A stretch of DNA of 52,015 nt from Burkholderiales bacterium (GTDB lineage: Bacteria > Pseudomonadota > Gammaproteobacteria > Burkholderiales > JBOIGA01): positions 1-52,015 of the forward strand of contig JBOIGA010000001.1 in assembly GCA_050741875.1 (NCBI GenBank). The letters are read 5' to 3'. Each line of letters opens with the position of its first letter. The stretch's first letter is position 1. The position numbers were made by a program, and so were the translations under genes. The notes under the pieces were generated by a model. It did not search any database and was not told where the DNA came from. It was given only the letters and a program-made list of their open reading frames with translations. Below are positions 45,226 to 49,276 of the stretch, one piece after another.

Positions 45226-46701
45226 ATGCCTCAGCAACACGATCCCGAAGGGCGACGACTTCCCATCAAACTTGACACCGCTAGCAACGGCGAATTCGCG
45301 CCGATACCGCTGGAGCCGGTGCATCATCACGCGCGCCGGCTCGCATCCGATCTCGCCACCGAAAACGCGAAACGGCGAGGTGTTTCTCGTCGGTCTTTTC
45401 TGGTTTCCGCGTGCGGCGCGGCTTCGACCTTGCTCGCAATGAACGCAGCTTATGCGGCTGCGGGGCGGAACAGCGGATTTTATGAGCTTGCCAATTCGGC
45501 CGCGCTCGACCCCGAGATCGCAGCGGCTGAATTGGACAGCAAGGAATTTATTTTCGACGTGCAAGGGCACTTCGTGAACCCCAACGGCGCCTGGCTCAAG
45601 AAAGTGCCTTCGGATGCGAAGCCGCTATCCAGCTTTGAGAAGTCGGCCTGCGCGCTCGCGGACAAGCCGGGCAATCGCAGTTACCTGCAGTGCTTGAGTT
45701 CGGACGAATTCATCAAGGACGTCTTCATGGATTCGGACACGGACATGATGGTGCTGTCTTTCGTGCCCTCGCGCCGCGATGCCGAACCGCTCACCATCGA
45801 AGAGGCCGCCGCCACAGCCGAAATCGTCGAGCGCATGGATGGCACGCACCGGCTGCTGATACACGGGCGCGTCAACCCCAATCAGGACGGCGATATGCAG
45901 GGCATGGAGGAGTTGGCCGAGCGCTGGAAAGTTTCTGCCTGGAAGACTTACACGCAGTGGGGGCCGAACGGCAAAGGATTTTTCCTAAGCGACGACATCG
46001 GCCTCGCCTTCATCGACAAGGCGCGAAAGCTCGAGATCAAAAATATCTGCGTGCACAAAGGCATTCCATTTGGCAAACAATCTTATGAGCACTCGCTGTG
46101 CGATGACATCGGCAAGGTCGCGAAGCGTTATCCCGATGTCAATTTTCTGATCTACCACTCGGGATTCGTACCCGGCCAAGCCGAAGGCGCATACGATCCC
46201 AAGCGCAATGAAGGCATCGATTCGCTGATCAAGACCGTCGTCGAGAACGACGTGCCGCGGAACAGCAACGTGTACGCGGAGCTCGGCAGCACCTGGCGCC
46301 AGCTCATGCGCGATCCGAATAGCGCGGCGCATGCGCTCGGCAAGCTGTTCAAATACGTAGGCGAGGACAATGTGCTGTGGGGCACCGATTCGATCTGGTA
46401 TGGCTCACCGCAGGATCAGATACAGGCCTTTCGGACTTTTCAGATTTCGGAGCAGCTTCGTGAGAAACACGGTTACCGCGAGATCACGCCCAAGCTGCGG
46501 GCCAAGGTTTTCGGATTGAACGCGATGACGCCTTACCGCGTCAGCACGGACGAGATGAAACGCTACATGGTGCAAGACCGGATCGCCAACGACCGGATCG
46601 CCTATCGCGACGCGCCGAACCCGCACTTCCGCACGCACGGGCCAAAAACGCGCCGCGAATTCTTGAATCTGCTGGCGTGGAATGGTGGGCAGCGGGTTTG
46701 A
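45226..46701 (+). CDS. Tat-exported amidohydrolase-family (TIM-barrel metal-dependent hydrolase) protein
   Basis: 491 aa. Twin-arginine signal RRGVSRRSFLVSACGAASTLLAMNAAYA. Amidohydrolase_2-like core (FDVQGHF..ICVHKG..YHSG..LWGTDS). Confidence 0.75.
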   Translation: MPQQHDPEGRRLPIKLDTASNGEFAPIPLEPVHHHARRLASDLATENAKRRGVSRRSFLVSACGAASTLLAMNAAYAAAGRNSGFYELANSAALDPEIAAAELDSKEFIFDVQGHFVNPNGAWLKKVPSDAKPLSSFEKSACALADKPGNRSYLQCLSSDEFIKDVFMDSDTDMMVLSFVPSRRDAEPLTIEEAAATAEIVERMDGTHRLLIHGRVNPNQDGDMQGMEELAERWKVSAWKTYTQWGPNGKGFFLSDDIGLAFIDKARKLEIKNICVHKGIPFGKQSYEHSLCDDIGKVAKRYPDVNFLIYHSGFVPGQAEGAYDPKRNEGIDSLIKTVVENDVPRNSNVYAELGSTWRQLMRDPNSAAHALGKLFKYVGEDNVLWGTDSIWYGSPQDQIQAFRTFQISEQLREKHGYREITPKLRAKVFGLNAMTPYRVSTDEMKRYMVQDRIANDRIAYRDAPNPHFRTHGPKTRREFLNLLAWNGGQRV

Positions 46702-46992: not shown

Positions 46993-47100
46993 GCTGCGCC
47001 ATCGCCCACGCGATGCCGATCGAACGGCCGGCGGAACGCGAGCGCGCGTAGAGCAGCGGCCTCGCGCCGAGCCTGTCCGAATCGTAACCCCAACCCAGCC

Positions 47101-47700
47101 CTAAACGATCGGCGGGTCAGTCTCGCGCTCAAAATGCCGATGTTTGGCAAGCGCCCGCAGGAAGACAGCAACCGCCGCGTCAGCTTTTCCGGAAGAACCA
47201 AACACCAGTCCCGGGTCCGCTTTACCGCCCGGCAGTTCAAGCGGCACACCCGCGTTCTTCAGCAACTCGGAAGATGCCCCGAACGCGAGAATCGGTTTGC
47301 AATACCGGTATTGATCCTTGATGAAGTCCATGAGACGAGCGTCGGAGGCGAGCGCCGCCAAGTCTTTGCCGTCGGGCAGTACCCGCGCGTCGAACAGCGC
47401 GGGTGGCGCGGCTTCCATCGACACGTCGACGCTGATCTCGGTACCCGTCGTCTTTACGAGGCCGAGTTTTTTGCCGACGAAGCGTGGCGTCGCGCCCGCT
47501 TCGGCCAAGGCTTGGTACACCGCCAGCAGAGACTCGCCTGCAACACCTTCCGCGCTTTGGGCATGGGATCGGGAACTTCCATGCCGAGGCCGTCGGCAAT
47601 ACCGGCAACGAGTTCATCGTCCACGTTTTCGCATCGAGACAAGCCTCGCTGCGACAAGCGAGTCTGAACCTCTAAAACAAGAAGGCAGCCTCGAAGGCGG
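47101..47700 (-). pseudogene. remnant of the C-terminal (DJ-1/PfpI-like) domain of a large-subunit catalase (KatE/HPII type), N-terminally truncated and frameshifted
   Basis: ORF 47101..47520 (..FDARVLPDGKDLAALASDARLMDFIKDQYRYCKPILAFGASSELL..) matches the clade-2 catalase C-terminal domain. The preceding segment ..ENVDDELVAGIADGLGMEVPD lies in another frame (ORF 47454..47657). No catalase heme core lies upstream. Confidence 0.6.
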
Positions 47701-47734
47701 TCTTTTCGGGAAATCTAAACGGGAGATTTAAAAC

Positions 47735-47809
47735 TTAGCGGTTGAAAATATACATTGTGACTTCGAAACCAAACCGCATATCGGTAAGTTCGGGTTTGCT
47801 CCAGGCCAT
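47735..47809 (-). CDS. pqqA: pyrroloquinoline quinone precursor peptide PqqA (orphan copy)
   Basis: Not in the ORF track because it is only 24 codons. My translation is MAWSKPELTDMRFGFEVTMYIFNR*, with AGGAG 6 nt upstream. It matches the PqqA consensus WxKPxxxxxRxGxEVTxYxxxR, including the cross-linked Glu-x3-Tyr. Confidence 0.75.
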   Translation of the reverse strand: MAWSKPELTDMRFGFEVTMYIFNR

Positions 47810-47968
47810 GGTCAACTCCTAAGTTGTTTGTGTTGAATCGAATGACGATTGCAGTGTGCGCTGTATCCGGATGGAGTGATAGCAGAAAAGCCTGATCGCG
47901 GACTAAATGCTTTTCATGTCTTCGAACTTACCCAGACGCAGCCTCGCGGTCAGCCGGTAATCCTATCT

Positions 47969-49276
47969 CTACTTCGAATGCCCAAAGAAAAATCGCACCA
48001 TTTCGCGCGTCGCATCGGGGCCTTGGGGATCGGTGTAGGAGCCCTCAACGCTGCCGCCCGACCACGCATGACCGGCGCCGTGGATTAGCCAGCGCTCCAT
48101 GACGATTGCGCCGTCGGCATCGTGATAAACCGAGAGCGTATAGCTGCGTCCGTTAGGCGCCTGCCCGCGCTCGGTCGTCGCGCGCGGCTTCGTCCCTTGC
48201 CCATGGATTAACCCTTGTTCGAGCACTAAGTCGCCGTTGCGCGGATGGACGGTCTTGTCCTGATCGCCATGAAACACGATCGTTGGAACGATCTTCGACG
48301 ATGACAAGGCATGCGCCGATTGCATCGCACGCGCGCCGCCCTTCTGCATCGCCGCGAAGGCCGAAGGCAGATCGTGCGCGGCGCCGTGAGCCAAACCCGA
48401 ATGCACGCCGATGGCGGCATAAAGATCGGGATAAGCAGCACCCATGATCGCCGCCATGGCGCCGCCGGCAGACATTCCGGCGACGTACACGCGCCGGCCG
48501 TCGAGCTTGTAATCGCTCACGATCGCACGCGTGATGCCAGCGATGATCGAGGGCTCGCCGGAATCGCGTTGCTGGTGGTTGGGAACAAACCAGTTCCAGC
48601 ATTTATTGTGATTTGCGGACTGCGCCTGTGCCGGATACGCGACCAGAAACAGCTCGGTTTCCGCAAGTGCATTCAGGCGCGTGCCGGCCGCTGCATCGTC
48701 GGGATTCTGGGTGCAGCCATGCAGCATCACGACCAGCGGCAAAGCCTGGCCCTGGTAACCGCTCGGGATATAAAGCTTGTAGGCGCGCGTGCCGGCTGCG
48801 TTGGTATAGACGCTTTCGATGAAGCGCGCATCCGGGGCGATATGAACGGATGGGTGGCTTTGCGTGCGGTCCGACGAGGGCTTTACGCGCCCAGGCGTGC
48901 GCAGCAAAGCGCGTAGGCGCTCCGACCATTTCGATTTTTGCGGTGCGGCGGGCGTGTGTTCGGCAGAAGCCGGGCCGCCAAAGCGATGTTCGGTTTCTTT
49001 TCCGTTTTCCGGGGCTACTAGATCCTTAGCGGCCGAGCGCTGAGTGAACGATCCCGCGGTGCTCGATTGTCGAGTCGCATCTTGAGCAGCGTCCGCTGCG
49101 TCGTCGACCACACGGTAGCTGCCTTCGATCGCGGGTTCTGCCTGATCCGTTCGGGCCGCCGCTCGTGGTTCGGTGCCCTTCAGCAGCCGTTGAATGAACG
49201 CAGTCGCCTCGAGCAGTTTTCCGCTCCGAGTCAGTCGAGTCGCTTCCGCCATTCCGGCTTGAATTTTTTGCTTCAT
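47969..49276 (-). CDS. PHB-depolymerase-family esterase (alpha/beta hydrolase, LpqC-like)
   Basis: 435 aa. LPLVVMLHGCTQNPDD..NKCWNWF..VAGMSAGGAM (GxSxG) is typical of the TIGR01840-type esterase family. The N-terminal ~180 aa are low complexity. Confidence 0.8.
   Translation of the reverse strand: MKQKIQAGMAEATRLTRSGKLLEATAFIQRLLKGTEPRAAARTDQAEPAIEGSYRVVDDAADAAQDATRQSSTAGSFTQRSAAKDLVAPENGKETEHRFGGPASAEHTPAAPQKSKWSERLRALLRTPGRVKPSSDRTQSHPSVHIAPDARFIESVYTNAAGTRAYKLYIPSGYQGQALPLVVMLHGCTQNPDDAAAGTRLNALAETELFLVAYPAQAQSANHNKCWNWFVPNHQQRDSGEPSIIAGITRAIVSDYKLDGRRVYVAGMSAGGAMAAIMGAAYPDLYAAIGVHSGLAHGAAHDLPSAFAAMQKGGARAMQSAHALSSSKIVPTIVFHGDQDKTVHPRNGDLVLEQGLIHGQGTKPRATTERGQAPNGRSYTLSVYHDADGAIVMERWLIHGAGHAWSGGSVEGSYTDPQGPDATREMVRFFFGHSK

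Follow-up and report, generated by a model that had tools for sequence, protein, structure and literature searches.

A katE-linked pqqA gene outside the pqq operon as one of four precursor copies in a Burkholderiales genome

Multi-copy, stand-alone pqqA is already well documented and is the ordinary arrangement known from methanol-using bacteria. Members of the Methylophilaceae contain 3-12 pqqA copies, with the other pqq genes present as one set only (PMC4109929). Additional pqqA genes lie outside the operon in Methylovorus sp. MP688 and M. extorquens AM1 and are thought to differ in regulation and contribution (Ge et al. 2015; Toyama and Lidstrom 1998; as cited in PMC6520949). PQQ was still made when the operon pqqA of Methylorubrum extorquens AM1 was disrupted (PMC6520949).

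The window, the whole 52,015-nt stretch of DNA analyzed here, is contig C1 of a 3.30-Mb genome (407 contigs, 93.6% complete), which alone represents its family in the species set that was searched. Within the window, a pqqA gene is followed by the remnant of a large-subunit catalase gene (katE). It is likely that this window copy is an extra pqqA, either functional or only recently weakened, whose peptide feeds the PqqD, PqqE, PqqB and PqqC enzymes of contig C24 and which was kept by purifying selection as katE was lost. Nothing known about PQQ synthesis is altered by the window pqqA.

Identity of the window pqqA and its genome context

The 24-codon open reading frame of the window is a genuine pqqA. 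It occupies positions 47735..47809 on the minus strand, which reads ATGGCC...AACCGCTAA; the full minus-strand DNA at 47809..47735, ATGGCCTGGAGCAAACCCGAACTTACCGATATGCGGTTTGGTTTCGAAGTCACAATGTATATTTTCAACCGCTAA, translates to MAWSKPELTDMRFGFEVTMYIFNR* and ends in TAA. The product was detected by PF08042 (Pfam PqqA; 40.8 bits, gathering score 21.1, E 2e-10) and by TIGR02107 (NCBIfam; 39.8 and 37.6 bits, cut-off 20), that is, with scores about twice the curated cut-offs. The preliminary description had reported a match to the PqqA consensus, including the E-x3-Y pair, and an AGGAG sequence at the proper distance, and both observations hold. The pair corresponds to Glu16 and Tyr20, which lie within the sequence G-F-E-V-T-M-Y of the 24-residue peptide. 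The Glu and Tyr of the PqqA core become PQQ. The Shine-Dalgarno sequence AGGAG is at 47816..47820 on the minus strand, 6 nt ahead of the ATG, in a cTTAGGAG context common to a stand-alone pqqA copy of C24 (C24up) and to the ortholog in a relative from another family (G085). No Rfam family matched positions 47000-48400.

A chance ORF or an assembly artifact would suit so short a reading frame and a metagenome bin fragmented into 407 contigs, but such an origin is so improbable as to be negligible. The HMM E-values were about 1e-10, TIGR02107 exceeded its cut-off in none of the 14 control genomes scanned, and orthologs were detected in two other genomes (G085 and G121). The esterase-pqqA-catalase-fragment junction is repeated identically in a second public assembly, GCA_975254255.1, which has 99.98% identity to the window over 5951 nt and a sole mismatch at window position 46682, outside the pqqA locus. 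The genome's only other catalase gene (contig C360) encodes a small-subunit catalase and does not overlap with the locus. A mis-assembly, in which the catalase fragment would really belong with the C360 gene, was rejected, as the locus and C360 share no DNA. The gene list of GCA_975254255.1 has nothing called at the pqqA position. The annotation value of the locus lies here: gene callers often overlook 24-codon pqqA copies, and for this reason an apparently orphan pqqA should be weighed against the whole genome before it is named a relic.

The preliminary description had called the window pqqA an orphan, which is correct within the window but not at the level of the genome. A tblastn search of the 52-kb window with the genome's own PqqB, PqqC, PqqD and PqqE gave a best E of 0.55 and no remnants, confirming that no other pqq gene is present there. 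The window pqqA is not in the canonical site 5' of pqqB; the katE remnant comes next. Contig C24 contains a complete pqqABCDE operon whose products all scored above the curated cut-offs (PqqB 422, PqqC 378, PqqD 107-115, and PqqE 532 bits). The TIGR02107 search of the genome detected four pqqA genes above the cut-off, namely the operon copy (C24:17494-17568; peptide MQWSKPEFTDMRFGFEVTMYIFNR) and three stand-alone copies, C24up (C24:12044-12118, minus strand; MAWTKPEF...), a copy on contig C53 (C53:5098-5172, minus strand; MSWSKPEF...) and the window copy (MAWSKPEL...). Searching the whole genome for pqqBCDE and further pqqA genes thus recovered an operon on C24, with its own pqqA, and two more stand-alone pqqA genes, in agreement with the earlier suggestion of a dispersed extra precursor copy with a pqq operon elsewhere. 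By exact look-up among about 15 billion proteins, all four pqqA peptides were singletons found in this genome only.

The genome also encodes proteins that use PQQ. A methanol/ethanol-family PQQ dehydrogenase of 625 aa is encoded at C90:2774-4651 (706 bits, cut-off 480) and contains the sequence DEWDYDGVNE, whose D-Y-D motif we take to be the mark of lanthanide-dependent XoxF-type enzymes. A second, weaker PQQ methanol/ethanol-family dehydrogenase is encoded on contig C18. Upstream of the C90 gene are genes for von Willebrand-type proteins resembling MxaC/K/L. The source organism is probably a methanol oxidizer, because the C90 XoxF-type (DYD) dehydrogenase gene has MxaC/K/L-like genes ahead of it.

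PQQ synthesis proceeds by established steps from PqqD to PqqE and on to PqqB and PqqC. If the window gene is transcribed and translated, its 24-residue peptide would be bound by the chaperone PqqD, the radical-SAM enzyme PqqE would cross-link Glu16 to Tyr20, and the cross-linked product would be trimmed and finished by PqqB and PqqC. The window peptide would in this way be converted to PQQ by enzymes that are all encoded on C24, and the PQQ would serve the XoxF-type methanol dehydrogenase of C90 and other quinoproteins. Because one peptide is consumed per PQQ molecule, several precursor genes would be kept in genomes with a high demand.

Among the four pqqA copies, the peptides differ by only one or two residues, compared to 8-14 nucleotides in the genes, and the flanking sequences show no relationship. 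The flanks could not be aligned except for short elements, namely a palindrome and AGGAG ahead of the gene and, past the stop, an A-rich stretch leading into a GC hairpin and a T-run. Compared with each of the other three, the window copy has 9-14 differing nucleotides, with non-synonymous changes at two codons, one of which is the variable residue 2, and the resulting pN/pS was 0.06-0.11. The window copy has five substitutions of its own, of which F8L alone is non-synonymous; among five random substitutions, so few non-synonymous changes occurred in 0.3-1% of simulations (neutral P 0.003-0.01). The window PqqA has Leu at residue 8, whereas its paralogs and orthologs have Phe. Position 8 varies within the family, with Phe, Tyr, Val, Ala or Ser in relatives, which speaks for tolerance of F8L, but Leu8 was absent from every other PqqA examined here.

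Orthologs, the katE remnant and selection on the peptide frame

The closest counterparts of the window copy were found outside its own genome. G085 belongs to the same order as the source genome but to a different, sister family (f31), and its contig C58 contains a pqqA unit directly upstream of an intact katE of 829 aa. This unit aligns with that of the window from the palindrome through the terminator. A third ortholog, in G121 (contig C311) of the sister family, is intact and matches window positions 47926-47732 at 81.7% nucleotide identity; the contig ends just past the terminator. The three orthologs share synonymous states that are not in the paralogs, namely TAT for Tyr20 and a third-position T in codon 8. 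A chance match, which the preliminary description had tied to loss of the ORF from relatives with conserved flanks, is contradicted by the presence of the ortholog in G085 and G121. The upstream flanks of the three orthologous loci are unrelated, which leads us to define the conserved unit as a mini-gene of about 250 nt, together with katE where that gene is visible. In the window, this mini-gene comprises the palindrome, a -10-like hexamer, AGGAG, the 24 codons and the remains of a terminator.

The gene upstream of the window pqqA is, as described previously, an esterase of the PHB-depolymerase family (47969..49276, minus strand), with a type-1 short-chain PHA-depolymerase catalytic domain (PF10503, 144.7 bits; NF050058, 331 bits). 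It lies outside the conserved pqqA unit, since each of the three orthologous loci has a different upstream flank. Its closest relatives among 185,579 species genomes and a metagenome collection have at most about 56% full-length identity and come from many phyla, and none of these relatives was found beside a pqqA. The esterase was therefore rejected as an anchor for conservation of the locus. The nearest relatives are scattered among Burkholderiales, Rubrobacter, Nitrospirota and Desulfobacteraceae bins, and this patchy distribution is suggestive of horizontal transfer.

Multiple pqqA copies also occur in relatives of the source genome. Five of the nine pqqA-bearing relatives in the order had 2-3 pqqA genes, and the sister-family genomes had 2, 5 and 5 copies. 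On contig C378 of G121 (L211), two complete pqqA units (1495-1569 and 1780-1854) are arranged in tandem, 285 nt apart; they encode an identical peptide, and each has its own palindrome and terminator.

Downstream of the window pqqA, HMM searches and blastn against the G085 katE identified a katE remnant at 47101..47637 on the minus strand, representing about the last 640 nt (last quarter) of the gene. The preliminary description had noted a decayed catalase at this position, and the Catalase_C model (51.5 bits) confirmed it as the C-terminal part of katE only. The fragment covers positions 617-745 of 752 of the catalase HPII model and residues 605-743 of 750 of eKatE. In blastn, window positions 47101-47553 match the last 453 nt of the intact G085 katE at 79% identity, and positions 47552-47637 match a block of the same gene located 104 nt further upstream at 86%. 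From this two-block alignment, about 1.84 kb of the 5' part of katE is gone and an internal, frameshifting deletion of 104 nt is present near 47552/47553. The 149 surviving codons of the remnant accumulated 12 synonymous and 11 non-synonymous changes on the source-genome branch, compared to synonymous to non-synonymous counts of 11:3 and 19:7 for relatives with an intact katE. These codon counts fit a relaxation of constraint after a fairly recent truncation.

One part of the remnant is still an open reading frame. The 139-codon ORF at 47101-47520 (minus strand) encodes the katE C-terminal DJ-1/PfpI-like domain and is called as a gene in GCA_975254255.1, although no ribosome-binding site is properly spaced from its putative GTG start. 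Since the pqqA terminator has been lost, the 139-codon ORF may be transcribed by read-through.

The sister-family ortholog in G085 lies directly upstream of an intact katE; therefore, the pqqA-katE adjacency is ancestral, and in the source genome katE decayed and the peptide frame stayed intact. The adjacency is confined to this lineage, as none of 11 other katE loci of the order has a pqqA upstream. The G085 locus also bears on the proposal, made in the preliminary description, that the window pqqA is all that survives of a second, deleted pqq operon. Such a history would account for a deletion lying immediately downstream of a gene that normally heads pqqBCDE. It is nevertheless very improbable, since the lost DNA was katE rather than pqqB: the remnant matches the 3' end of the intact G085 katE at 79-86% nucleotide identity, and the orthologous pqqA of G085 is likewise followed by katE. 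An alignment of the flanks thus showed katE where a former pqqB might have been sought, and the window lacks PqqB-E remnants by tblastn, the intact operon being on C24.

The last step of PQQ synthesis yields H2O2. The release of H2O2 and the pqqA-katE order common to two families could be explained if the mini-gene served mainly as a promoter and leader unit that ties expression of the catalase gene after it to PQQ synthesis, and not as a source of precursor. We regard this as highly unlikely, because the 11 other katE loci of the order lack an upstream pqqA and because a strong terminator separates pqqA from the next DNA in G085 and G121. Any such role would in any case have been lost from the source genome, where katE is destroyed.

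In the katE-linked pqqA of G085 (L206/L214, G085:C58 522-674), 2 nt are missing directly behind the Tyr codon, and the predicted product is MAWAKPEFTEVRFGFEVTMY followed by 31 unrelated residues in place of the IxNR tail. Either a genuine frameshift or an error in the assembly could account for this deletion. As they stand, the two loci form a small natural experiment in which one pqqA-katE pair met opposite fates in two lineages: the source genome kept the peptide frame and lost katE, and G085 kept katE and has a frameshifted peptide tail.

The pattern of change differed between the peptide frame and its surroundings. Changes were counted on the branch between the source genome and the G085/G121 pair; these counts are unpolarized, involve small numbers and are blind to recent silencing. 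Codon positions 1 and 2 changed at 1 of 48 sites and codon position 3 at 4 of 25 sites. The non-coding DNA changed at 15 of 121 sites upstream and at 12 of 44 sites downstream, where a 15-nt insertion was also present. Fisher's test gave P 0.04 for positions 1 and 2 vs. the upstream DNA and P 0.008 vs. all less constrained sites pooled. With few substitutions in 72 nt and a long branch, these values suggest that the window peptide frame was under purifying selection while katE decayed.

These counts also bear on a different account of the locus, that of a decaying copy whose frame is intact only because it is short and was recently silenced, and which, with its activator site and terminator eroded and katE deleted, contributes little or no PQQ. 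This account, the main alternative, is rather unlikely. Several observations are in its favor. By simulation, a neutral 72-nt frame with five substitutions is free of stops about 85% of the time. The downstream flank is the fastest-changing part of the locus on this lineage, and the neighboring katE is wrecked. The 2-nt deletion replaces the C-terminal tail of the G085 ortholog, which would make the katE-linked pqqA dispensable in at least one relative. In addition, one of the several pqqA genes of Methylovorus MP688 has been reported to be dominant (Ge et al. 2015, as cited in PMC6520949). Against decay, the changes within the frame are concentrated at synonymous sites, with the 1 change at 48 first and second positions contrasting with 12-27% of sites in the flanks. 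The control elements described next contribute to both sides.

Control elements of the pqqA copies

A 17-bp palindrome, CTCATGA-AAA-TCATGAG (variant CTAATGAAAATCATTAG; consensus CT[CA]ATGAAAATCAT[GT]AG), was found upstream of most pqqA copies examined and is itself well supported. A site matching at 14-17 of the 17 positions was present at 16 of 21 scored copies, which were taken from this genome and from nine further families of the order (relatives L011-L025); outside these sites, the best match within the 3-kb loci reached 11-13 of 17. A -10-like hexamer, NANNNT, starts 44-47 nt past the palindrome. The sites in this genome are C24:12208-12224, C24:17353-17369, C53:5263-5279 and C16:20054-20070. 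With a weight matrix built from the relatives' sites only, three of the four pqqA copies were among the top four sites in 3.3 Mb, with scores of 30.6, 23.7 and 20.9 bits. The remaining top-four site, C16:20054 (22.6 bits), is ahead of an Mla-like ABC permease operon, with TACAAT 44 nt further on.

The window copy is the exception to this arrangement: its palindrome is degenerate, and it adjoins a catalase remnant rather than a regulator pair or an importer. In the degenerate box (GACATGAAAAGCATTTAG; 47903..47920, minus strand), a T has been replaced by G and the right arm contains an additional T. The box scored 2.5 bits ungapped, or 13.7 bits if the extra T is ignored, vs. 20.9-30.6 bits for the genome's other three copies. 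The boxes of the orthologs scored 19.7 bits (G121) and 13.7 bits (G085). The core of the window box, ATG-N5-CAT, is still present. The hexamer CACACT (47853..47858, minus strand) lies inside the conserved string GCGCACACTGCAATCGT, 44 nt past the palindrome end at 47903; this spacing recurs at the other copies, and the surrounding strings have homologs in G030, G085 and G121. CACACT is a candidate -10 element of the window copy.

The terminator of the window copy (remains at 47674..47702, minus strand) has kept its T-run and lost its hairpin, and it contains a 15-nt insertion relative to the orthologs. Its predicted fold was -9.1 kcal/mol (z +0.77), compared to hairpins of -18.8 to -23.8 kcal/mol (z -2.0 to -4.2) for the other three copies and both orthologs. 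The four paralogs differ clearly in the predicted quality of their control elements, and the regulatory parts of the window copy are the poorest of the four. Unequal control elements are consistent with multi-copy pqqA genes being non-equivalent.

The low box score and the lost hairpin are what would be expected of a decaying copy. On the other hand, the window copy has retained its Shine-Dalgarno sequence, ATG start, -10-like hexamer and spacing, and the core of its box survives, which argues against decay.

Genes for a sensor histidine kinase and a NarL/FixJ-type response regulator (C24:12234-14572, minus strand) are located immediately upstream of the C24up pqqA at C24:12044-12118. The response regulator scored below every equivalog cut-off. 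The same order, regulator and then pqqA, is repeated in G030 (L021) and G003 (L013), and we infer that the NarL/FixJ-type regulator of C24 is a candidate reader of the palindrome. A single pqqA in another relative (L016, G004:C32) has no palindrome; a sigma-54-like TGGCAC-N5-TTGCT is present about 130 nt upstream of its start.

We tentatively propose, as a speculative model that is somewhat less likely to be right than wrong, that all pqqA copies of the order belong to one undescribed regulon. In this regulon, the 17-bp palindrome, centered near -64 and 44-46 nt from the -10 element, would be read by the NarL-type pair encoded beside one of the pqqA genes and would also drive the Mla-like ABC transporter. 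The katE-linked window copy would have escaped through erosion of its box and terminator, so that it would now give either a box-independent, basal supply of precursor or nothing.

Comparison with known systems

The peptide encoded by the window copy resembles PqqA of canonical operons in its length, its W-x-K-P leader, its G-F-E-V-T-M-Y core with Glu and Tyr, and its HMM scores above the cut-off. It differs from them in its Leu8 and in that its gene has its own promoter-like region and is not followed by pqqB. A site ahead of pqqB is diagnostic of the operon copy alone, and extra copies in the known multi-copy genomes are likewise not upstream of pqqB (PMC4109929).

The window locus stands out in three respects only: it is orthologous to a katE-linked copy, the two partners decayed reciprocally in two lineages, and its control elements are eroded. 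As in Methylovorus sp. MP688 and M. extorquens AM1, the source genome contains extra pqqA copies outside the operon; differences among its copies are read only from the DNA itself, as box scores and terminators, in contrast to those two systems. The overall arrangement is that of the Methylophilaceae, in which near-identical, stand-alone pqqA genes are scattered, the biosynthetic enzymes are encoded once and an XoxF-type methanol dehydrogenase is encoded as well. Unlike the Methylophilaceae genomes, the source genome comes from a different and very poorly sampled family, its four PqqA peptides are singletons, and the control elements of its window copy are eroded.
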